A stretch of 64,000 nt of DNA from an uncultured Alphaproteobacteria bacterium (GCA_944392585.1 CALXXA010000028.1:521-64520), one strand, 5' to 3'. Shown: positions 1 to 9,654, counted from the first letter of the stretch. The notes: generated by a model not told the origin, from the sequence alone. Program-made: numbers and translations.

Positions 1-143
1 ACTCTTTTATGTTCGGCCGGTGTCAGGTTAATGGTTTCGACCACCGCCACAGTCTCCAGTCTGTTGCTGTTGGCTCTGGTTGTGCTCTTTACTTCGTCGA
101 GGTCGGAGGGCTTCCTGACCATGTAAGTTTTAACTGTTTTCAT
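1..143 (-). CDS. 5'-partial hypothetical CDS running off the window start (begins MKTVKTYMVRKPSDLDEV...)
   Basis: ATG at 141-143 on the minus strand, preceded by an AGGAG-like RBS (revcomp of 'catgataatctcc'). The frame stays open to position 1. No homolog recognised. Confidence 0.3.
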   Translation of the reverse strand, partial: MKTVKTYMVRKPSDLDEVKSTTRANSNRLETVAVVETINLTPAEHKR

Positions 144-242
144 GATAATCTCCTTTCGCATCACAATGAATGCTCTTTTTCGAAGAATTATCCAGTTATT
201 TCTGTACTAAATCGCAAGAAATATGCATTATTTTGAGGGGGG

Positions 243-339
243 GTGACCAGCCAGAAGTGACCAGTGACCAGCCAGGAAAAATCGGACCCTATTATAACCC
301 TTGTATTTATTGGGGTTTGAGATATACCCGACCAGCCAG
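243..339. repeat. Cluster of GTGACCAG(CC) direct repeats, iteron-like
   Basis: 'gtgaccagccagaagtgaccagtgaccagccagg' at 243-276 and 'cgaccagccag' at 329-339. These share the TGACCA core with the tandem repeats downstream. Confidence 0.6.
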
Positions 340-367
340 AATTTTTCTGTTTCGCTAGAAATATGGC

Positions 368-385
368 GCGGCTTGCGTCCCCGCA
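368..385. repeat. Left copy of an 18-bp direct repeat, 'gcggcttgcgtccccgca'
   Basis: 17/18 identical to 582-599. The two copies bracket the tandem iteron block. Confidence 0.6.
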
Positions 386-434
386 TATGAAATCTCGCCA
401 GGAAGGACCCATGGCCGGACACCCAACTACCCAG

Positions 435-490
435 GTGACCACCCAAAAGTACCAAGTGACCACCCAAAAGTACCAAGTGACCACCCAAAC
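435..490. repeat. Tandem 21-bp repeat 'gtgaccacccaaaagtaccaa' (~2.7 copies), putative replication iterons
   Basis: Perfect copies at 435-455 and 456-476, a partial copy at 477-490, and a degenerate copy 'ctgaccactgaccacccaaaa' at 536-557. This periodicity is what generates the repetitive 'VVTWYFW' ORFs in the six-frame track. A Rep-like gene lies ~750 bp away. Confidence 0.65.
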
Positions 491-581
491 TTAAAATAAA
501 ATCTTGTAACTCTTTGATATTTATGTATTTTTATCTGACCACTGACCACCCAAAATTTTTTGGTTTTACTGAAAAAACACT

Positions 582-599
582 GCCGCTTGCGTCCCCGCA
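582..599. repeat. Right copy of the 18-bp direct repeat, 'gccgcttgcgtccccgca'
   Basis: Matches 368-385. Confidence 0.6.
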
Positions 600-602
600 G
601 AC

Positions 603-632
603 ATAAAAAAGCCACCTTTTTGATCAGGTGGC
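603..632 (-). terminator. Rho-independent terminator downstream of the nitroreductase gene
   Basis: Hairpin gccacct-N8-aggtggc at 611-632, followed on the minus strand by a T-run (complement of 'ataaaaaa' at 603-610). It sits directly after the minus-strand stop at 656. Confidence 0.6.
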
Positions 633-655
633 TAGCGACCAAAACAACGGAGAAA

Positions 656-1171
656 TTATAAAAATTGAACGGTATCGGACAAGGGCTTCTTGTTCGTATG
701 CGTTGGCGCTGGTGCCGCCGAGGCTGTCGGATAACCGAACATCATGAGCAAAACGGGCACTTCGTTTTTGGGTAAATCAAAAGCCTTGCGCGTTTCATCC
801 GGGTTAAACATATTCACCCAAGTGGAATGAACGCCCAAGTCTGCGGCCTGCAACATCATGTGTGTTGCCACAATGGATGCATCCTCAACGCCCGAAGTAA
901 TAGTCTCATCAGTTGGGTTGTGCCATTCTTGATTTTTATCATAGCAAATAATCATGGCAAGCGGGGCATTGTAGTGACAAGGTGTCACAGCCCGCAACTT
1001 TTCCATGGCCGCCGGTGATTGAACAACATAAACCTTTTGCGGTTGGTTGTTCTTGGCGGTAGGGGCCACTCGACCTGCCTGTAAGATCTTTTGGATTTTT
1101 TCATCTTCAACAGGTTTAGTATCATAACTTCTTTGCGTATAACACACTGTACTCAGTTCTTCAAATGTCAT
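656..1171 (-). CDS. Nitroreductase-family protein, likely cargo of the mobile element
   Basis: 171 aa. NfsB/nitroreductase-fold-like sequence by eye. Clean ORF with a downstream terminator. Confidence 0.65.
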   Translation of the reverse strand: MTFEELSTVCYTQRSYDTKPVEDEKIQKILQAGRVAPTAKNNQPQKVYVVQSPAAMEKLRAVTPCHYNAPLAMIICYDKNQEWHNPTDETITSGVEDASIVATHMMLQAADLGVHSTWVNMFNPDETRKAFDLPKNEVPVLLMMFGYPTASAAPAPTHTNKKPLSDTVQFL

Positions 1172-1249
1172 TGTATATCCTTTCTATTTGTGATTATTAT
1201 ATAGCACTGTTTTTCAAAAAAAGAAAGTAAATTAGTAAGCTAAAAACTT

Positions 1250-2014
1250 TTAAGCCCCTTCATTGGTTTTTGCATATTCTTCCCCGTACATTTCCCATTG
1301 GTCAACCGAGCGCTTCCAATCTTTAATTGGATTGCCATACTTATCACACCACTTTTTGCGGGAATAATAAACATGGAACTGGTAAGGGTTGATTTTATGA
1401 TACTGCCTTACTTGACAATACTCTTCCACTTGTTCTATGGACGGGCTGTTATCACTTAGCCCCAACAGCTGTCCGATTGGAACCGGACCTTTAGAAATTG
1501 AGCCTTGCCTTGGCACACTCCAATTCATTGCCAAGCCTGAGGGAGTTTCTTTTTCATTATATACATTCTGGGCATTCTTTCCTTTCTTATTTATAGCCGC
1601 AGGTAGTTCGCCGGTCGTCCGCAGGTAGTTCGCGCCTGAGTCGCATGGGGATAATTCATCACCGCCTAACACATTGAAATCATTATATTTTAACATCTTT
1701 ATAAGTAGTCCGTTTGCTAAGCGTTTTGTATCAACTTCACCGGTTTTTTTGAGTTTTGCTATAACCCGCTTGATTTGTTGCGGGGATTTTTTTAAGGCCT
1801 CTGAGATCACAGCATAACTGGTCAGCAATTCGCCTTTATGGATAACATATTCATAAAGTTCTTTATCTTGGAAATTTGCCCGCAGTAAGAGATAAAGGTA
1901 CACTTGGCAGACATTTTCATCCGGAAGCCAACGCCAGTTTAAATAACGTCTGTCTAATTTGACAAAGCCAAGAGGAAAATGCGGATCATCCGTTTTTTGT
2001 TTGTTTTGAGACAT
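1250..2014 (-). CDS. Phage/plasmid replication-initiator-like protein (N-terminal winged-helix, DnaD/RepA-like), hypothetical
   Basis: 254 aa. N-terminal region resembles the wHTH of replisome-organiser/Rep proteins. Operonic with the serine recombinase and upstream of the iteron array. Confidence 0.45.
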   Translation of the reverse strand: MSQNKQKTDDPHFPLGFVKLDRRYLNWRWLPDENVCQVYLYLLLRANFQDKELYEYVIHKGELLTSYAVISEALKKSPQQIKRVIAKLKKTGEVDTKRLANGLLIKMLKYNDFNVLGGDELSPCDSGANYLRTTGELPAAINKKGKNAQNVYNEKETPSGLAMNWSVPRQGSISKGPVPIGQLLGLSDNSPSIEQVEEYCQVRQYHKINPYQFHVYYSRKKWCDKYGNPIKDWKRSVDQWEMYGEEYAKTNEGA

Positions 2015-2047
2015 CAGGTGTGTCCTTTCTAATGAGAAGGAAAAGGG

Positions 2048-3760
2048 TTAATCTTTGACGGGTGGAAAACCGAACAGTTTTCTTTGTTCGGTCCAACTGG
2101 CCGGGATAGAGGCCCTGAGCAATTCTCGGGCGGTCATTGTTTTGGGTTGAGCTCCCCGTAAAATGGCATCAATAATATCCGGTGCCAAAAAGGTGAGCCG
2201 AATTTGCGCTCCGATATAGGCTGGATCCTGATGATATACTTCGGCCAGTTCATGCAGGTTTAAGTTCTTGGCTTCCTGGGTTTCACGATAAGTAAAACCG
2301 TTGGCTAAAATCTTAATGAGATAACGGTCTTCTTTCTTGGATGGCTTTTCACCTGAGGTCAAATACAGCATATCCGACACTGTTTCGGGCAAATGAATCT
2401 CCTTGCTCCCACGATGTGTAATCAGGTTAAAGGGGACGGTAGATTCCATCAGTTCCGGCTTTGATTCATTGGGTTTCAAACTGGCTTTTAAGCGTTTATC
2501 CATCAGGTGAAGGGCCAACGGTTTCCAGACCACAATAATTTTATCGGCAAAAATCGTTACCCCTTGAAGCAGAAGGCTGACTATTTTTTCCTTTTGTGTG
2601 CCGGTCAGTTGTTGAAAAACAGAATCCGTTTCACGCATTGCATAAAAGACCTCGCTTTCTTTTAAGTCCGGTTGCACTTGGCAGGCTTCCTGCGTCAGCG
2701 CCTGTAAAACATACGGGGATTTAATCAGCGGATTGAGCAAGTCCATCACCAAATTATCCAACAAGTGCATGGGGATGGCATTCAGCCGACATGAATGAGG
2801 TCCGTATTTTTTGTGGGTGCTATCGGTATAATAATAGTATCGTTTGCCATTTTTTAAAGAATATCTGGGATAAAGTTTTTGCTCACAACATCCGCAAGAC
2901 AGAATCCCTCGAAGTAATCCGTTTTCCTCGTTTTTACTGACCGGTTTTAACCGCCGCCGCCGTATTTTTTGTGAATGTGAATTGAATAACTCCTGGGCGG
3001 CCTCAAAGGTTTTCTTATCAATAATCGGTTGATGCAGGCCCGGGAAAGAAGTCCCTTTATGCGTAATCTCGCCGATATAAACACGATTGTTGAGCATACT
3101 CCTTAAAAAGGTCCAGCCGGGAACTTTTCCCCGGAAAGTGCAATTTTCCCGTAAAAGGGTATGGCCCACCATGGATAAATTACCGGATGATAAAAACAGT
3201 TCATAAACGTGCTTGACCTTTTCGGCATCTTCCGGCACAACCACCAGTTTTTTATTTTCACCTTTATAACCAAACGGGGGAACACCGCCGACCCACATAC
3301 CCTTTTTCTTGGATGCCAGAATCTTATCGCGGATGCGTTCTCCACTGATTTCTCGTTCAAACTGCGCAAAGGATAACAGTACATTCAACATCAATCGCCC
3401 CATGCTATCCGCCGTATTGATATTTTGTGTCACCGATACAAAAGAGCAGTGGTGTTTATCAAAAATTTCAATCATCTTGGAAAAATCCAAAAGAGATCTG
3501 GTCAACCGGTCAATTTTATAAATAACCACCATATCCACTTTATTCGCTTGAATATCGGCCAGTAATTCTTGAAAAGCCGGTCGGTTCATATTACCGCCGG
3601 AATAACCACCGTCATCATAATGTTTGTCTATCAATTCCCATCCTTGATGACGTTGCGCCTTGATATAATTTTCCCCGGCTTCCCGTTGAGCTTCCAGGGT
3701 ATTAAATTGTTTTTCTAATCCTTCGTCTGTTGATTTACGTGTATAGATTGCACATCTCAT
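2048..3760 (-). CDS. Large serine recombinase (resolvase/invertase N-domain plus recombinase and zinc-ribbon domains)
   Basis: 570 aa. N-terminus 'IYTRKSTDEG...KIDRLTRS' carries the catalytic Ser-containing resolvase motifs. Cys-rich region 'CGCC...C' in the C-terminal half. Confidence 0.85.
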   Translation of the reverse strand: MRCAIYTRKSTDEGLEKQFNTLEAQREAGENYIKAQRHQGWELIDKHYDDGGYSGGNMNRPAFQELLADIQANKVDMVVIYKIDRLTRSLLDFSKMIEIFDKHHCSFVSVTQNINTADSMGRLMLNVLLSFAQFEREISGERIRDKILASKKKGMWVGGVPPFGYKGENKKLVVVPEDAEKVKHVYELFLSSGNLSMVGHTLLRENCTFRGKVPGWTFLRSMLNNRVYIGEITHKGTSFPGLHQPIIDKKTFEAAQELFNSHSQKIRRRRLKPVSKNEENGLLRGILSCGCCEQKLYPRYSLKNGKRYYYYTDSTHKKYGPHSCRLNAIPMHLLDNLVMDLLNPLIKSPYVLQALTQEACQVQPDLKESEVFYAMRETDSVFQQLTGTQKEKIVSLLLQGVTIFADKIIVVWKPLALHLMDKRLKASLKPNESKPELMESTVPFNLITHRGSKEIHLPETVSDMLYLTSGEKPSKKEDRYLIKILANGFTYRETQEAKNLNLHELAEVYHQDPAYIGAQIRLTFLAPDIIDAILRGAQPKTMTARELLRASIPASWTEQRKLFGFPPVKD

Positions 3761-4191
3761 TATCCAACTCCAAAAAAGCGTTTTCCCGAGGTGCGTATGC
3801 CTGTGATATGATGGGCAGCTGATGATAAACTGGTGTAATAGGTGCCGTCCATATCTACGCCCCTTTCCAAAATAGTGACACGATAGTCCGTCCCTTTATA
3901 GGTGCGGACTATCACTGTTCCCACCGGATATAAGCTTTTCTTGCGTTGTTGTTTTTCAAAGAGTTTTTTAATCAGGCTTTTTGTCTTTAAGGATAATCCC
4001 CCATGGCGTAATTCTTGCAAACGGTAAGAAACGCGCAAGATGTAAAACTCTTTATTGCCAATGCGGGCTTCTTGATTATACAGTTGCATATAATACTGTT
4101 TCAGGACATGAAAAGGCAAATCCGGCACAGTGCTAATATCAATGTTTAAGTCAAGATTTGTATCAACCATAGCGACTCCTTGTGAATACAA
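3760..4191 (-). CDS. DUF2924-family protein, a frequent partner of large serine recombinases
   Basis: 143 aa. Tail 'SLSSAAHHITGIRTSGKRFFG' is typical of DUF2924. Start overlaps the recombinase stop. Confidence 0.6.
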   Translation of the reverse strand: MYSQGVAMVDTNLDLNIDISTVPDLPFHVLKQYYMQLYNQEARIGNKEFYILRVSYRLQELRHGGLSLKTKSLIKKLFEKQQRKKSLYPVGTVIVRTYKGTDYRVTILERGVDMDGTYYTSLSSAAHHITGIRTSGKRFFGVG

Positions 4192-4321
4192 TAACGCTCT
4201 TTTTACAATTTATATCCAGTTAATTCTGATTATTTTTGGCACTTTCTTCCCCTTGATTGAAAACTTTCAGCAAAGTGGGGAGTATGACCAGCGCCAATTC
4301 GTGTAACGGATTGTTCATGGG

Positions 4322-4534
4322 CTACCTCTTATCAAAAGTGATTGCTGTTTTTTCGGCCGATTCCACCCAAGCATCTAAATCCGCCACATCATAAAAACTA
4401 TGACCGCGTACTTTTCTGAACTTGGGGCCGGAACCGTCCACCCGGTATTTTTGCAAGGTGCGTTGGGCTAACCCCAGATAGGTGGCGGCATCTTTTGTTG
4501 TATAAAAGCGTTGCGTTACTTTTCTTTTTTCCAT
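4322..4534 (-). CDS. AlpA/excisionase-family HTH phage regulatory protein
   Basis: 70 aa. 'TTKDAATYLGLAQRTLQKYRVDGSGPKF' matches the AlpA/Xis-type HTH. Confidence 0.7.
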   Translation of the reverse strand: MEKRKVTQRFYTTKDAATYLGLAQRTLQKYRVDGSGPKFRKVRGHSFYDVADLDAWVESAEKTAITFDKR

Positions 4535-4768
4535 CTTTTATTTCTCCTTAATTTATTGTTGACATTGCTCGCCTTATGCGAACAAGGCAAAGATAAAGCT
4601 TAAAAAGAAGAATAAACATTGAGATTTTTTTGAAGAAAACTAGCATTTTTTTAAAAATCCCAGTCTGCGAAAAAAAGTGTTGAGTACAAAAAACTTGTTC
4701 CTGTTCCCCCTGAAAAATATTGCCTTTTTATCGCCTTTTGACTATATCTTTGGATATAGGAGTATCTG

Positions 4769-5530
4769 ATGAAGGAATTTTACAGGAATTTATTTCAAGT
4801 ATATTTGTTTATGGCCCGGGCTTTATTTCCGAAAGATTCTGCTCTGCAACGCGAATTTTTACTGATAAAGGTCTCAGGCCTTGAAAAGGAAATGCCCGAA
4901 GTTTTTGAAAAATTGGGTGGGGTTTCACTTTTACGCCTGTACCGATCGGCCAAAGAGATGAAAAAATTACAAGAGCATATTCAAACAACCGATTGGTCTT
5001 ATGTCATGCGGATGTTAAAAACAATGCAGTCCATGCAACAGGATCCCAAATTGGCCGGTAAAGTCAGCCTCAACAAAGCGGCATTTGTTTTGGATAAAGA
5101 CATCAAAGAGGGAAAAGCTAAAGATTCCCAAAAGAACAATGCCCCTCGCTATAAAGATATCTGGCGCCAATATCGGGGTGTGGCCCATCTGATAGAGGCC
5201 CTTCAAATCATGAAAATGCAGTATCTGGAATGGACAGACAATCCTATCCCTTTTGAAGCCTTTTTGGCGTTGGCACTGGATCACCTGAATTTGGCCGCCT
5301 ATCAACAAGGGGAAGAACTGAAGAAATTGTACGAAGGACATACCAAAAAGCCCATTGTGCCGGCGGATGAATTTTTTGCGATAGAAAAACCAAAACTGGC
5401 CGAAGATGAATTAGCCATTGCCTTGGTGAAAGAGTGCCTTTTAAGCGACCCAACACTCAGTAAGAAAATCAGTAAATACCGCGCCCCGGTCTTTGACTAT
5501 GGGAACTTTGTCATTCCAAGCGATAACTAA
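4769..5530 (+). CDS. Hypothetical protein (253 aa) whose 3' end is duplicated downstream of the Abi cassette
   Basis: Clean ORF, GC-richer than the core genome, divergent from the alpA-like gene. The C-terminal 14 codons plus stop recur at 7104-7159. Confidence 0.55.
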   Translation: MKEFYRNLFQVYLFMARALFPKDSALQREFLLIKVSGLEKEMPEVFEKLGGVSLLRLYRSAKEMKKLQEHIQTTDWSYVMRMLKTMQSMQQDPKLAGKVSLNKAAFVLDKDIKEGKAKDSQKNNAPRYKDIWRQYRGVAHLIEALQIMKMQYLEWTDNPIPFEAFLALALDHLNLAAYQQGEELKKLYEGHTKKPIVPADEFFAIEKPKLAEDELAIALVKECLLSDPTLSKKISKYRAPVFDYGNFVIPSDN

Positions 5531-5541
5531 AATTGCTTAGC
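5486..5541. repeat. Direct repeat A (~56 bp) flanking the AbiE cassette; spans the last 14 codons and stop of CDS 4769-5530
   Basis: 'ccggtctttgactatgggaactttgtcattccaagcgataactaaaattgcttagc' is ~49/56 identical to 7104-7159. Confidence 0.8.
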
Positions 5542-5576
5542 TGATGTCATATTTTATCTATTTTGTAAAAAAATGC

Positions 5577-5605
5577 TTGATTTTCTCCTAAAACTCTAAT
5601 ATAAT
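5577..5605 (+). promoter_or_regulatory. Near-consensus sigma70 promoter for abiEi: TTGATT, 17-nt spacer, TATAAT
   Basis: -35 at 5577-5582, -10 at 5600-5605, RBS AGGAGA at 5615-5620, ATG at 5625. A 6-bp inverted repeat ctccta/taggag (5585-5590 and 5614-5619) flanks the -10 and is a possible autoregulatory operator. Confidence 0.5.
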
Positions 5606-5624
5606 TGGAGTAATAGGAGAAAAT

Positions 5625-6212
5625 ATGATATATTCTTTTGACGATTTAAAAACAAAATATAGTAATTACGCCAAAATTTACGATAAAATACGATATGAAG
5701 TAAAGGCAGGCCGCTTGATACCTATTGCACGTGAATTATATGAAACCGATCCTACGACCGATGGACAATATCTGGCCGGACGTATTTTCGGACCGTCGTA
5801 TTTATCTTTTGATTATGCACTGTATGTTTATTCCCTCATTCCGGAAACTGTTTATAAGACATATACATCTGCCACATTTAACAAGCGCAGAAAAAAGAAG
5901 TATCAAAATAATTTTGGTTTGTTTACATACAGGGATGTTCCGGCAGAAGTATACCCTCTTGCCGTATTAATTCATGAGGAGAATGGCTATTCTTACCAAA
6001 TTGCAACGCCCGAAAAGGCATTATGCGATAAATTATACACTTTACCGCCCATCAAGAATTTGACAGAATTAAAGGAACTTTTGTTTGAAGATTTGCGGAT
6101 AGATGAAGGAGAGTTCGCCAAGCTTAATAAGGAAGTATTAGAAAAAATAGCTCCTCTTTATCATTCAACCAATCTTCACATGCTTAGTAAGCTGATTAGG
6201 AGAACTTTATAA
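5625..6212 (+). CDS. AbiEi-like antitoxin/transcriptional regulator (type IV TA, N-terminal wHTH)
   Basis: 195 aa. 'VKAGRLIPIARELYE' matches the AbiEi wHTH signature (G-x-L-x-R-[IV]-[AR]-R-G-x-Y). Stop overlaps the ATG of the downstream DUF1814 gene (ATAATG). Confidence 0.65.
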   Translation: MIYSFDDLKTKYSNYAKIYDKIRYEVKAGRLIPIARELYETDPTTDGQYLAGRIFGPSYLSFDYALYVYSLIPETVYKTYTSATFNKRRKKKYQNNFGLFTYRDVPAEVYPLAVLIHEENGYSYQIATPEKALCDKLYTLPPIKNLTELKELLFEDLRIDEGEFAKLNKEVLEKIAPLYHSTNLHMLSKLIRRTL

Positions 6213-7072
6213 TGCAAACCATTTTAACCCAGATGTTGGAACAATATCAAACAAAAACTCTGACGGAAAAGAAAAACGCTATAAAGGAGGTTGTCCAAGA
6301 GATTGCCTTATGCGGGTTATCTCGAGCCGATTTCTTTAAACATGTTGCATTTTATGGCGGTACAGCATTGCGTATTTTTTATGGCCTCGATCGTTTTTCT
6401 GAAGATCTGGATTTTTCGCTTATATCTCCAAATCCGGATTTTGATTTAAAACCATATTTTAATGGGCTGGAAACAGAACTGGCTTCGGTCGGCTTAAAAT
6501 TTTCCATAGAAGAAAAAATAAAGTCCGTTGATTCTGACATTAAATCAGCCTTTTTAAAGGGAAATACAAAAGAACATATTGTCAGTATTTATGGCGTGCA
6601 GGACATCAATATTAACCCTAGTGAGATAATCAAAATAAAGTTTGAGATTGATACCAATCCTCCGGCCTTTGCCTCCTTTGAGAATAAATACCGATTACTG
6701 CCGTCACCATATCAAGTTAAACTTTATGATATGCCGTCATTATTTGCCGGTAAGGTTCATGCAGTTATTTGTCGGACTTGGAAAAATCGTGTTAAAGGGC
6801 GTGATTTATATGACTATATATTTTACCTGTCGCACCGATCAAAAATAAATTTACCCCATTTAAAAGCAAGACTTGTAGATTCTGGTGTTTTAAAGGACGA
6901 TGATACATTTACGATAGAAACTTTAAGAACGATGTTAAATGAACGTTTTGAAGCTATTGATTACGAAAGTGCAAAACAGGATGTATTACCGTTTATTACC
7001 GATGCGAATAAATTGGATCTATGGAGTAAGGAGTTTTTCATAGATATTAGTAAAAATCTTGCGGATAAATGA
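6212..7072 (+). CDS. AbiEii/AbiGii-family nucleotidyltransferase toxin (DUF1814)
   Basis: 286 aa. 'FYGGTALRIFYGLDRFSEDLDFSL' is the hallmark AbiEii NTase motif (GG...DLDF). Translationally coupled to the upstream wHTH gene. Confidence 0.8.
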   Translation: MQTILTQMLEQYQTKTLTEKKNAIKEVVQEIALCGLSRADFFKHVAFYGGTALRIFYGLDRFSEDLDFSLISPNPDFDLKPYFNGLETELASVGLKFSIEEKIKSVDSDIKSAFLKGNTKEHIVSIYGVQDININPSEIIKIKFEIDTNPPAFASFENKYRLLPSPYQVKLYDMPSLFAGKVHAVICRTWKNRVKGRDLYDYIFYLSHRSKINLPHLKARLVDSGVLKDDDTFTIETLRTMLNERFEAIDYESAKQDVLPFITDANKLDLWSKEFFIDISKNLADK

Positions 7073-7103
7073 TCAATAACAAATAAAGATTTACTTCTAA
7101 TAT

Positions 7104-7159
7104 CCGGTCTTTGACTATGGTAATTTTGATATTCCAAGCGATAATTAAAATTGCCTAGC
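7104..7159. repeat. Direct repeat B; encodes '...PVFDYGNFDIPSDN*', i.e. the tail of the 4769-5530 protein with mostly synonymous changes
   Basis: Alignment to 5486-5541. Differences are ggg/ggt, aac/aat, gtc/gat and aac/aat. 'attgcctagc' recurs at 7208-7217. Confidence 0.8.
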
Positions 7160-7179
7160 GGATAAAGATACGAAACGAA

Positions 7180-7206
7180 AAAGGCGCAAAGTTATGCCTT
7201 TTTATG
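7180..7206 (+). terminator. Possible rho-independent terminator after the Abi cassette
   Basis: aaaggc-N10-gccttt followed by tttta. Confidence 0.35.
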
Positions 7207-7374
7207 GATTGCCTAGCAAAGAAAGTTTTGGGTGGTTCATTTGCTTAAATAGCACTTTTGCTTTCATCTCACAAAAAACACAGATGAATTGTGGTAAATG
7301 GGCATTTTCACATTGAGCCTAAAATTCATCACAAGAGCCTTTATAACTTAGCTTTCATCGCCTCATTTCAGGCA

Positions 7375-7400
7375 CGAAAAAAGCCCGTCTAAAACGGGCT
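7375..7400 (-). terminator. Rho-independent terminator of tRNA-Ala
   Basis: agcccgt-ctaaa-acgggct hairpin, followed on the minus strand by TTTTTTCG. Confidence 0.6.
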
Positions 7401-7411
7401 GAATCTTAAAT

Positions 7412-7487
7412 TGGTGGAGGTAAGGAGGATCGAACTCCTGACCTTTGCAATGCCATTGCAACGCTCTCCCAGCTGAGCTATACCCCC
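7412..7487 (-). tRNA. tRNA-Ala, anticodon GGC
   Basis: Reverse complement: GGGGGTATAGCTCAGCTGGGAGAGCG TTGCA-ATGGCAT-TGCAA AGGTCAGGAGTTCGATCCTCCTTACCTCCACCA. Cloverleaf with a 7-nt anticodon loop centred on GGC. CCA is encoded. Confidence 0.9.
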
Positions 7488-7548
7488 GTTTGATAAAATA
7501 TGAGTATATATAAATTTTTTTTTTATACAAGAAAAAAATAATTTTTTC

Positions 7549-8262
7549 TTATTTTAAATGACCTTCCATCTTTAATGAAGTTGCTCCAGTCCTTGAAATA
7601 ATAATATGGTCGCTTAATTCAATGGATAAAGAAACAGCGACATCTTTGAGTTGTTGGGTTGTTTTTATGTCTTGTATGGAAGGACGGGCATCTCCAGAAG
7701 GATGATTATGAATTAAAACCATAGACGTCGCACCAAGTTCCAAAGCTTTGTGAATAATTTCTCTCGGATATAAAGGAACTTTATTAATGGTTCCTTCCCC
7801 CATTTTCTGATCTAAAAGCAAGTGAAGTTTTGCGTCTAAAAATAAAATATGAAAAGATTCTTTTTTCTCACGACCAAGAGTCGAATAGCAATAATCCATA
7901 ATTTTAGCTCTGTTTCCCAAAATAGGTTGATTGATTAAATCTCTTCTTAAAATGGTTGCATGAGCGGCGCGAATAAGTTTAAACAATACTATTGTATTTT
8001 CTTTGATATATTTAAACCGATAAAGTTGTTCCGCCTCGGCGCATAAGACGTTTCCAAGCGTGTAAAACTCTGCTAAAAGCTGTTTAGCCAGCAGTTTCAC
8101 GTCTTTTCTGGGAATAGAATACATTAAAAGAGCTTCTAAAATCTCGTAATCATCAAAAGAACTTAAATCTGTTTTTAATATTTTTTCTTTGGTTCTCTCT
8201 CTGTGCCCGTGCAACAGAAGTAAAGGAGATTGATCATCTGGATGAGAAGGTTTCTTTTTCAT
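7549..8262 (-). CDS. radC: RadC-family JAB-domain protein
   Basis: C-terminus 'HNHPSGDARPSIQDIKTTQQLK' is the JAMM/RadC motif. The start probably lies at the internal Met (MKKKPSHPDD...), not the track's 8412 start, which would overlap map by 180 bp. Confidence 0.7.
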   Translation of the reverse strand: MKKKPSHPDDQSPLLLLHGHRERTKEKILKTDLSSFDDYEILEALLMYSIPRKDVKLLAKQLLAEFYTLGNVLCAEAEQLYRFKYIKENTIVLFKLIRAAHATILRRDLINQPILGNRAKIMDYCYSTLGREKKESFHILFLDAKLHLLLDQKMGEGTINKVPLYPREIIHKALELGATSMVLIHNHPSGDARPSIQDIKTTQQLKDVAVSLSIELSDHIIISRTGATSLKMEGHLK

Positions 8263-9067
8263 TTTTAACTGTCTTTTTCTGAATAAAATAAGGAGGATAA
8301 TCATATCCGGCCGGAGATAAAGTAAATACCTCAGGCCCATTTTTTGTAATTCCAATGGTGTGTTCAAATTGTGCGGACAGAGAGCGATCTTTTGTAATAG
8401 CCGTCCATCCATCTGATAAAATTAATGTATCAGAACCTCCAATATTAACCATAGGTTCTACTGTAAAAATCATTCCTTCTTGAATAGGCATTCCGTCTCC
8501 TTTTTTCCCATAGTTTAATACATTTGGTAATAAATGAAAGGCTTGCCCTACGCCATGTCCACAAAAATCTTCCACAACAGAGAAACGTTCTTTTGAGGCG
8601 CATAACTCGATGGCATGACCAATGTCTCCCATGGTGTTTCCTATTTTTGCCTGATTAATTCCGGCCCACATGGCATGAAAAGCGCATTCGACTATCCTTT
8701 TTGCCTTAATAGAAGGAGTTCCGACATAGTACATTCTGCTGCTGTCTCCATACCATCCGTTTAAAATAGGAGTAATGTCTATGTTGACGATATCTCCGTC
8801 GTAAAGGACTTTATCTCCTGGTATTCCATGGCAGACAATATGATTCGCCGAAATACAACTGGCTTTTGGATAGCCTCTGTATCCAAGAGTTGCCGGAATG
8901 GCTCCATGATCTCTCATGAATTCTTCCATTAAAGAGTCTAATTTTCCCGTTGTAATGCCGGGGACGACAAAAGGCGTGATATAATCTAGCGTTAAGGCAG
9001 CCAAATGGCCGGCTTGACGCATTCCTTCAAATTGTTCTACTGCATATAATGCTATTTGTTTATTCAT
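8234..9067 (-). CDS. map: Methionine aminopeptidase type I
   Basis: 277 aa. M24-family metal-ligand pattern (D..D..H..E..E) and typical MAP sequence. Confidence 0.85.
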   Translation of the reverse strand: MNKQIALYAVEQFEGMRQAGHLAALTLDYITPFVVPGITTGKLDSLMEEFMRDHGAIPATLGYRGYPKASCISANHIVCHGIPGDKVLYDGDIVNIDITPILNGWYGDSSRMYYVGTPSIKAKRIVECAFHAMWAGINQAKIGNTMGDIGHAIELCASKERFSVVEDFCGHGVGQAFHLLPNVLNYGKKGDGMPIQEGMIFTVEPMVNIGGSDTLILSDGWTAITKDRSLSAQFEHTIGITKNGPEVFTLSPAGYDYPPYFIQKKTVKNEKETFSSR

Positions 9068-9156
9068 TTTGACTTTCTCTTTTCGTTGAGTTAGAATATA
9101 CCCGTTGAAGTGATTTTTCTACTTAATTTTTAATTTTTTTATAAAAAGGTGTGAAA

Positions 9157-9246
9157 ATGACGAATAGACAGAAAATGGCATTGATGATTTTTATTTTAGC
9201 TGTAATATGTTGTTTGTTACTTTTAAACTCTCCTTTGGCAAACTAG
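9157..9246 (+). CDS. Possible 29-aa hydrophobic small protein (MTNRQKMALMIFILAVICCLLLLNSPLAN)
   Basis: ATG with an upstream GGTG/AAAGG-like RBS. Single predicted TM helix. Sits in the rpmF upstream region. Not verifiable by homology here. Confidence 0.2.
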   Translation: MTNRQKMALMIFILAVICCLLLLNSPLAN

Positions 9247-9468
9247 TTTCTTAAAAAAGACTTCTCCGAAAAGATAATAAAATTTTAAAGAAAGTAGAGA
9301 AAAAGACTTTGTTTTTTTAAGTTCTATGTTTCTTTTTATGGAAAAGAGTTATAAAAAGTACTTGCAAAAAGTTAAAAAATGTGTATGTAATAAGGTCTTA
9401 AAATAGTTTTTTTATTATTCAGTCACGGATAATAAGTTTGTTTTATTTATGAAGGAAAGAGTAAGAAA

Positions 9469-9654
9469 ATGGCTACACCAAAGAAAAAAACGTCTAAGTC
9501 TCGCAGAGATATGCGCCGTTCTCATCATGCCTTGGCAAAGAATTCCATGGTAGAATGTCCCAAGTGCGGCGAGATGATGCGTCCGCATCATGTTTGCGAA
9601 GCATGTGGCTTTTATAATAAGCGTGAAGTTATCGTAACTGCTAAAGCCGAATAA
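9469..9654 (+). CDS. rpmF: 50S ribosomal protein L32
   Basis: 61 aa. '[18 protein letters not shown]' plus a CxxC...CxxC zinc ribbon. Confidence 0.9.

Follow-up and report, generated by a model that had tools for sequence, protein, structure and literature searches.

Where the end of an open reading frame (ORF) recurs on the far side of a neighbouring anti-phage module, is the ORF a component of that module, or a separate gene beside which the module has inserted? The question is raised by a 64,000-nucleotide stretch of DNA from an uncultured Alphaproteobacteria bacterium (GCA_944392585.1 CALXXA010000028.1:521-64520), referred to below as the window, in which an ORF encoding a 253-amino-acid (aa) protein at 4769–5530 on the plus strand (ATG at 4769, TAA at 5528–5530), here called the target gene, lies directly upstream of an AbiE module. 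An earlier note on this DNA had left both answers standing, proposing that the ORF is either a preferred integration target or a co-functional partner of AbiE. We find that the target ORF is a core gene in a family of integrative elements, small and satellite-like, from uncultured Alphaproteobacteria of the gut and rumen, and the reading that we consider likely as a whole is that this core gene is no part of AbiE and that the region around its stop codon swaps cassettes.

Bases 1–7411 of the window are the right-hand part of such an element. About 35 related loci were compared, 21 of them from different GTDB species representatives, and in all of these the target gene is divergent from an AlpA/excisionase-like HTH_17 gene and is the last gene before a conserved tail and a tRNA-Ala gene. 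The element layout runs from variable defence cargo through a replication gene, a serine recombinase, a DUF2924 gene and a 32-aa ORF to HTH_17, and continues from there through the divergently oriented 253-aa gene, an optional cassette and a 248-nucleotide (nt) tail to tRNA-Ala. The target ORF is, judged by a ratio of nonsynonymous to synonymous substitution rates (dN/dS) of 0.19 at a synonymous divergence (dS) of 0.22 (16 alleles, 120 pairs), a real gene; purifying constraint is present in every 30-codon block, including codons 241–253, the 13-codon tail that falls within the repeat described below (dN/dS 0.18), and a GGAG sits 8 nt upstream of the start. Its GC content of 42.5% is accompanied by 41–46% in the element backbone (target gene included), 34.3% in the AbiE cassette and 36.9% in the chromosomal part of the window, consistent with the earlier observation that the gene is GC-richer than the core.

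The last 14 codons of the target gene are indeed, as previously noted, the unit repeated on either side of the AbiE module. Copy A (5486–5545, plus strand), which comprises these 14 codons, the stop codon and 15 nt, agrees with copy B (7104–7163, plus strand) at 53 of 60 positions, whereas shuffling bases 1–9500 30 times gave best 60-mer matches of 30–37 of 60. Wherever the cassette is present the last 45 coding nucleotides and about 15 nt beyond them exist in two copies, of which copy A completes the target gene and copy B is the former target 3' end, now stranded and still reading PVFDYGNFDIPSDN up to a stop; the sequence pattern of the anchor gene 3' end is GAYTATGG...GATAATTAAAATTGC. Because 9 of the 11 variable sites in copy B fall at codon position 3, and because its ORF end is intact at 11 of 12 loci though no longer translated, the copy B variants arose when these sequences were functional gene ends. 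The copy B of the window is 100% identical to the single copy in a cassette-free locus (L031), and copy B ends on the right in sequence of the resident type. The last ~18 nt of copy A (about 5528–5545), TAAAATTGCTTAGCTGAT, are by contrast constant in all AbiE loci and differ from the resident sequence at this position, which is TAAAATTGCCTAGCGGAT or ...GCTTGAGAGGAT; on this comparison the right end of copy A travels with the cassette. In the coding part, copies A and B show 4.2 and 4.4 mismatches per 45 nt between loci, respectively, against 5.6 for the single copies of empty loci, and the similarity of A to B within a locus is barely above background (permutation p ~0.04). A simple target-site duplication was rejected as an origin of the repeat, since copies A and B differ by ~9%.

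Between the copies lies a cassette of 1,558 nt (5546–7103, plus strand) whose edges are the same in all AbiE-bearing loci. It contains only two genes, abiEi (5625–6212, plus strand; PADLOC AbiEi 2e-61) and abiEii (6212–7072, plus strand; PADLOC AbiEii 3e-111, Pfam 9e-31), and no recombinase. A promoter found by scanning (TTGATT-17-TATAAT, 5577–5605, plus strand) is overlapped by a 21-nt inverted repeat (5580–5600 and 5604–5624, 86% complementary), operator-like and of the expected kind for a site of AbiEi autoregulation. The cassette occurs in ~12 distinct loci, including 7 GTDB species representatives, and is 99.4–99.8% identical among them, compared with 84–97.5% for the adjoining 717 nt of the target gene and 82–98% for the tail. 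Nucleotide diversity (pi) in ten AbiE-bearing loci (the window and nine relatives) is 0.06–0.10 in the gene, 0.002–0.010 in the cassette and 0.06–0.13 in the tail, the change falling inside the two repeat copies, and no backbone bin across 18 loci lies below 0.012. Similarly, dS is 0.009–0.011 for abiEi and abiEii versus 0.22 for the target gene and HTH_17, making the cassette ~20 times younger than the target gene at synonymous sites. Cassette single-nucleotide polymorphisms are mostly private to single loci, and loci with and without AbiE are interleaved on the target gene tree. As measured by these divergences, the AbiE cassette is shown to be a discrete unit that has recently spread through backbones already 3–16% diverged. 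A search of the cassette DNA against phage and plasmid collections yielded no more than a short AbiEii match (72%) in Arcobacter plasmids, and an exact AbiEii protein look-up returned 3 contigs, all of the same element, a result that cannot separate an AbiE-partner role of the target gene from a hotspot.

AbiE is one of several occupants of this position. The junction at the target stop codon is empty in ~17 distinct loci, where the target 3' end is joined directly to the tail with a single repeat copy, and elsewhere holds AbiE or, in L024, a 558-aa GajA/AriA-like OLD-family gene on the opposite strand at the same spot. The insert in L024 joins just past TAAAA and is bounded by AATTAAAA, so that its junctions lie within ~10 nt of the AbiE junction. 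The locus of a ~44% identical homologue (L045) carries a type VI retron directly past the target stop codon (RT_VI 6e-77, HTH_VI 2e-26), and that of a 24% identical homologue (L041–43) a three-gene cassette ending in a DUF488 protein (PDC-M45C, 5e-53), flanked by the perfect 15-nt repeat GTGATTTATTAAGTT, which corresponds to the last three codons, the stop codon and 3 nt. All four anti-phage assignments (AbiE, GajA/AriA-like, retron RT_VI with HTH_VI, and PDC-M45C) were made with PADLOC and their activity is predicted. Comparison of these states shows that the variable locus bounded by the target 3' end and the conserved tail is a hotspot exchanging self-contained, predicted defence cassettes. 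The suggestion of a preferred integration target is borne out by these states (empty in ~17 loci, AbiE in ~12, and the OLD/GajA-like, retron and DUF488/PDC-M45C inserts), and a survey of genomic context confirms that homologues of the target gene are associated with mobile elements and with defence cassettes.

The opposing suggestion, that the 253-aa protein is a third component of the AbiE system, draws on the position of the target gene directly upstream of abiEi on the same strand and on the overlap of its 3' end with the cassette boundary. We consider it very improbable. AbiE functions as a self-contained, bicistronic type IV toxin-antitoxin/abortive infection system (Dy et al. 2014, PMC3985639), and abiEi and abiEii at 5625–7072 form a canonical pair whose own promoter is covered by inverted repeats. 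The 253-aa protein is unlike both components, with no similarity to AbiEi or AbiEii in PADLOC or Pfam, and it mostly occurs without them: ~17 loci have the gene without AbiE, more than half of the loci lack the module, and other cassettes take the same site. The contrast in dS (0.22 versus 0.01) and the ~20-fold younger age of the cassette further contradict a co-functional partnership, which the earlier note had entertained, and the comparison as a whole shows that the target gene is not, at the level of gene content and divergence, part of AbiE. We likewise give next to no probability to a history in which AbiE inserted once in a common ancestor, was inherited vertically and was lost repeatedly, with the repeat as an old target duplication. 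Recombination between copies A and B would indeed yield exactly the empty state, and the single copy of L031 is identical to copy B of the window; however, the two copies differ by ~9% where a duplication would start identical, and the cassette is 10–20 times less diverged than its flanks at all sites and at synonymous sites, a contrast that excludes a single old insertion followed by vertical descent.

The junctions give an indication of how the cassette may move. They fall at TAAAATTGC[Y]TAGC[K]GAT, immediately past the target stop codon, and are confined to ~5527–5545 in most loci. In the window, L004, L012 and L017 the left part of copy B is the same, and its right part occurs in three different resident versions; a crossover at about TAAAATTGC predicts just this. 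A resident C at 5537 in L027 and L039 puts the crossover 5–10 nt further right, L019 resembles a crossover near the left edge of the repeat, and in L001 and L016 it looks as if one of the two copies had converted the other. A model with one common donor and a single fixed crossover was rejected, as it accounts for only 4 of 12 loci. We posit that the AbiE cassette would recombine within or beside the short repeat, possibly by loop-out and re-insertion, for which the predicted circular cassette junction is ...TTACTTCTAATAT-CCGGTC...TAAAATTGCTTAGCTGATGTCATATTT..., or possibly by short-patch exchange between co-resident elements, and that such movement would have been repeated over several hops. 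Several observations weigh against the exchange of cassettes at the stop codon as we read it. No recombinase or shared end motif accounts for the precise cassette edges, and a RecA crossover would be expected in long identical stretches (the control region and the tRNA), carrying flanks along, whereas tail identity to the window is at most 98% in every AbiE locus. Moreover, the left parts of copies A and B are as diverse as the resident alleles, and this diversity leaves no simple single-crossover model without several hops or later conversion.

Could the stop-codon segment instead be the attachment site of a recombinase, with cassettes moving as circles that carry one copy of the site, in the manner of an integron? 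The enzyme would then be the element's serine recombinase or a host enzyme, or the 253-aa protein would act as a cofactor. Such a platform would account for cassette edges that are identical in ~12 diverged backbones, for junctions limited to ~15–20 nt beside the stop codon, and for a drop in diversity so sharp that it is hard to obtain by long-homology RecA recombination. Four loci fit exactly the arrangement in which copy A is resident-left plus cassette-right and copy B cassette-left plus resident-right, the OLD-like cassette, an unrelated one, has its junction no more than ~10 nt away from this point, and a 15-nt stop-codon repeat flanks the cassette of the 24%-identical homologue. However, there is no recombinase in or beside the cassettes, the ends of the four cassettes have no common motif, the repeats are of unequal length (60, 15 and 8 nt), none of the loci contains a stack of two cassettes, and the crossover points seem variable (L019, L001, L027/L039). 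Serine recombinases, furthermore, need no homology and leave only a 2-nt overlap. Neither an IntI-type gene nor a cassette-wide recombination site, both of which characterise an integron, was found. We therefore regard a platform of this kind as unlikely, and it is rather less probable again that the stop-codon region serves a new cassette-capture system, integrase-independent or acting in trans, as its true attachment site.

Within the preferred reading, in which a core gene of the element anchors the hotspot, there remains the question of what this gene encodes. Its product had been described as unannotatable, and significant matches are lacking in Pfam, PHROGs, NCBIfam, PADLOC and a PDB sequence profile; 12 family members scanned singly gave no recurring weak Pfam match. 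A word-indexed search of 5.8 billion proteins recovered 74 clusters, all at least 73% identical, all unnamed and all originating from gut or rumen alphaproteobacterial metagenome-assembled genomes, and an exhaustive hidden Markov model search of 1.84 billion representatives gave just 18 matches, with ~8 full-length relatives at 20–44% identity. By these searches the protein belongs to a tiny orphan family. Tblastn searches of 50,697 phage records, of 72,556 plasmid records and of the contigs in IMG/VR turned up no homologue. The family shares the motifs FP.D, GG..L..CRS, DW, SLNKAA, W..YR.VAHL and a C-terminal YRAP, with invariant residues S100, H140, W76, W132 and Y237, and the last 12 residues, the coding part of the repeat, are restricted to the close clade. 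The N-terminal half is basic (isoelectric point 9.6). An AlphaFold2 model built on an alignment including the distant relatives is all-alpha (pLDDT 84.3, pTM 0.81), its last ~15 residues being of low confidence; an earlier run with 15 close homologues (pLDDT 44.8) was discarded, the distant relatives having raised the value to 84.3. A fold search with this model found no neighbour in the PDB or BFVD. An Adaptin_binding match (E 0.04) was dismissed as a low-complexity helix match, and a HEPN-like Rx4-6H reading of WRQYRGVAH was rejected on account of a conserved basic residue at x3 spacing and the lack of conservation of R133, as well as the absence of a HEPN fold match. Tandem expansions of 45 nt occur in the protein linker (aa ~115–125, about window 5110–5140) at L009 4913–5047 and L011 4978–5112, where they encode acidic 15-aa units and produce 268-aa and 283-aa alleles.

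The target gene and HTH_17 are separated by a divergent control region of 234 nt (4535–4768) that is nearly invariant in 17 loci, with pi of 0.03–0.05 compared with a dS of 0.22 in the flanking genes. A promoter-like site facing the target gene (TTGAGA-16-TAGCAT, 4619–4646, plus strand) was found by promoter scan, and the outward motif TTGAGATT...ACTAGNAT is recognisable even in L045 and L041. The promoter region also contains two tandem ~20-nt units (ATTYTTTT..AAAA..CTAG; window 4619–4700, L041 7870–7940) that may be an operator. Expression of the target protein would start from this conserved outward promoter, opposite the excision/replication operon led by HTH_17, and the protein would be the positional analogue of a satellite master regulator. 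Since the gene faces outward across the control region from that operon, and since the N-terminal half of its product is basic, the protein fits a regulator or maintenance factor of the element, an assignment that we put forward tentatively, as possible though short of an even chance. As with CI/Stl-type repressors, the arrangement is divergent across a shared region (here of 234 nt); a recognisable helix-turn-helix (HTH) domain, which such repressors have, was not found. Two observations weigh against a regulator. One is that neither sequence searches nor the fold search detected an HTH or other DNA-binding domain in the protein. The other comes from decayed elements. Independent microhomology deletions in L007 (9926–9932, GATAAAG; window 2875/4864) and L008 (2131–2138, TTTTTAT; window 3256/4856), whose right endpoints are 8 nt apart, extend from inside the recombinase gene through the first ~30 target codons and remove the recombinase catalytic domain, DUF2924, HTH_17 and the control region. 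The L008-type remnant nevertheless has an intact 212-aa ORF starting at Met42, found in three protein clusters (P0052–54), and an intact ORF in such immobile remnants hints at a function independent of mobility.

Two other roles have to be weighed against that of a regulatory or maintenance factor. The protein might be a constitutive factor of benefit to the host, acting in defence, exclusion or helper-phage interference, as the fixed first gene of an outward-facing defence locus. It faces outward beside defence cassettes in every lineage, the 212-aa form is intact in remnants without recombinase catalytic domain, DUF2924, HTH_17 or promoter, its alleles are old and diverse (dS 0.22, with the highest pi in the element backbone), and the five invariant residues could mark an active or binding site. 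Against this, the protein has no PADLOC match and no enzyme-like fold match, its homologues are absent from the phage, plasmid and IMG/VR collections searched, and selection on the gene is overall purifying rather than diversifying; a host-beneficial role appears unlikely to us. Alternatively, since the gene adjoins the recombinase operon and the att-proximal end of the element, its product might serve the large serine recombinase as recombination directionality factor or in another accessory role. The directionality factors known for serine integrases are mutually unrelated, and some, such as phiC31 gp3 and Bxb1 gp47, are of ~250 aa. The target gene and the recombinase are, however, transcribed separately, the more usual candidate is the small "excisionase-type" HTH_17 protein of the recombinase operon, and the family also occurs in the L041–43 element, which has a tyrosine integrase and neither a serine recombinase nor DUF2924. 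The pairing of the target gene with HTH_17 independently of integrase or replication module argues against a directionality factor of the serine recombinase, which we hold to be improbable.

The genes on the other side of the control region are typical of an integrative element and conform to the earlier description of an alpA-recombinase operon transcribed divergently from the target gene. Leftward from 4534 on the minus strand follow HTH_17, the 32-aa ORF, DUF2924, the serine recombinase, a DnaD-like protein and a nitroreductase. The AlpA/excisionase-like HTH_17 gene (4322–4534, minus strand, 70 aa; Pfam HTH_17 at 2e-10) heads this operon and accompanies the target gene in all element types seen, the one with a tyrosine integrase among them. 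The conserved 32-aa ORF between it and DUF2924 (4220–4318, minus strand; translation MNNPLHELALVILPTLLKVFNQGEESAKNNQN, ending at a stop) is near-identical to a gene called in L001 and is called in most related loci. The DUF2924 protein (3760–4191, minus strand, 143 aa; Pfam PF11149 at 2e-29) belongs to a family that is said to match the RAMA DNA-binding domain in part (PMC11342252). The large serine recombinase (2048–3760, minus strand, 570 aa; Pfam Resolvase 9e-39, Recombinase, Zn_ribbon_recom) is the element's integrase and is kept in nearly all related loci, and the DnaD-like replication initiator/helicase loader (1250–2014, minus strand, 254 aa; PHROG 2514 at 1e-13) is replaced in other elements by a DUF6291 plus 214-aa module. 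The recombinase/DUF2924/HTH_17 architecture is retained in L045, while in L041–43 the divergent HTH_17–target pair adjoins a DnaD-like gene and a tyrosine integrase fragment. The smallest version of the element (L009/L011) is ~5.3 kb with six genes including the target gene. The N-terminal catalytic part of the recombinase gene (window 3448–3650) is far more uniform than its surroundings, with pi of 0.002–0.006 in AbiE-bearing loci and 0.017–0.022 across 18 loci, versus 0.04–0.11 nearby. Further left, window 239–599 contains five copies of the 21-nt unit CCAAGTGACCACCCAAAAGTA, three of them in tandem at 431–493, and in the same region a 56-nt repeat at 330–385 and 544–599. Window 103–412 is conserved at 94–96% in L001, L004 and L007. 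The repeat region looks iteron-like and may be the element's origin.

At the right-hand end, a non-coding stretch of 340 nt separates abiEii from tRNA-Ala. Most of it is the conserved non-coding tail of 248 nt (7164–7411), which lies directly 3' of the target gene in cassette-free loci, includes a tRNA terminator hairpin (7382–7400, minus strand; terminator scan), gave no Rfam match and probably contains the attR side. The element abuts the 3' end of the chromosomal tRNA-Ala(GGC) gene (7412–7487, minus strand; ARAGORN and Rfam), beyond which the window continues with the housekeeping genes radC, map, rpmF, plsX and fabH. The tRNA-Ala alleles vary between loci, with compensatory stem changes, host-type promoters and differing genes beyond, while the element side is conserved; the tRNA-Ala gene is chromosomal for these reasons, and the same element has therefore entered many hosts. 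That the tRNA gene might belong to the element, given that the flanks beyond it differ at every locus, was considered and rejected on the strength of these stem changes and promoter types. A search of the left end of the 5.3-kb minimal element (L011/L009) for a direct repeat derived from the tRNA gave none. The anticodon is GGC at most loci and CGC in L008 (3070–3145) and L037 (7026–7101). The radC ORF as listed (287 aa; window 7549–9067) overlaps the map ORF by 179 nt, and as RadC is called as 237 aa in L046 the true radC start is probably downstream. In L007 (10775–20528) and L039 (8937–12796) the genes past tRNA-Ala are those of type IV secretion (VirB11-like T2SSE, TrbI, CagX, VirB8), and a conjugative element may flank the same tRNA-Ala there too. 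The cassette-free element L031 (JAZNEO010000235.1) sits on a contig of 6.8 kb that was assigned to a Candidatus Avelusimicrobium (Elusimicrobiota) bin, reflecting either a binning error or transfer across phyla.

Consistent with the antiviral hotspots described at the psu-int locus of P4-like satellites and in P2-like phages (Rousset et al. 2022, PMC9122126; PMC13586616), the locus is small (~1–5 kb), has a conserved core gene on one side and the end of a small integrative element on the other, and holds alternative self-contained defence systems, near-identical ones occurring in elements with differing core genes. How systems are swapped in the P4/P2 hotspots is an open question (PMC9122126, PMC13586616). 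The defining features of such hotspots, namely a variable locus at a fixed position, anti-phage cargo (here predicted), and near-identical cargo with diverged cores, are all present. The elements differ in coming from uncultured Alphaproteobacteria, in having as integrase a serine recombinase accompanied by DUF2924, and in an orphan anchor gene that has no relation to psu; the cassette, moreover, is bracketed by the duplicated anchor 3' end. This duplication recalls the prophages e14 and phage 21, which occupy the icd 3' end, and other elements that supply their target gene with a substitute 3' end. In both cases the insert lies between two target 3' ends that differ mainly at synonymous positions, one intact and one a relic; however, those inserts encode their own integrase and a constant element-borne copy, while the insert here is without a recombinase and both copies vary. 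A likeness to the attI/attC system of integrons lies in the insertion of single, mostly promoter-independent mobile units promoter-proximally at one fixed site beside a conserved gene, the difference being that here there is no IntI, attC-like folded site, shared end motif or cassette array, and that AbiE has a promoter. The regulatory modules of phage satellites include AlpA, Stl and MerR (PMC10085698), and the present elements resemble satellites in combining an integrase, an AlpA-like HTH_17 protein and a replication module in a 5–20 kb island next to a tRNA gene, as well as in having a gene transcribed divergently from the AlpA-led operon, although the 253-aa protein has no detectable HTH. 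Reading of the loci, which did not extend to a systematic analysis of the elements' left parts, brought no packaging or capsid-redirection gene to notice. We call the element satellite-like on account of its gene content.

The type of hotspot is itself known; what is new here lies in the clade of hosts, in the element family and its orphan anchor protein, and in the legibility of the junctions. The element family, defined by a serine recombinase, DUF2924 and HTH_17 beside tRNA-Ala, is so far undescribed and is present in at least 20 species-level genomes, and its anchor protein has a confident predicted fold without a solved or viral neighbour. What makes the junctions legible is an empty state, a filled state with both 3'-end copies, and at least 12 independent backgrounds, so that the crossover points can be mapped to ~15 nt and the mechanism of exchange becomes testable. 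Should the less probable cassette-capture reading prove true, satellite-like elements of gut Alphaproteobacteria would carry an integron-like platform for anti-phage genes, in which repeat-bounded defence cassettes loop out and re-insert at the anchor 3' end with the participation of the 253-aa protein or the serine recombinase. The conserved anchor gene, for its part, is usable as a guide to new defence cassettes in metagenomes.

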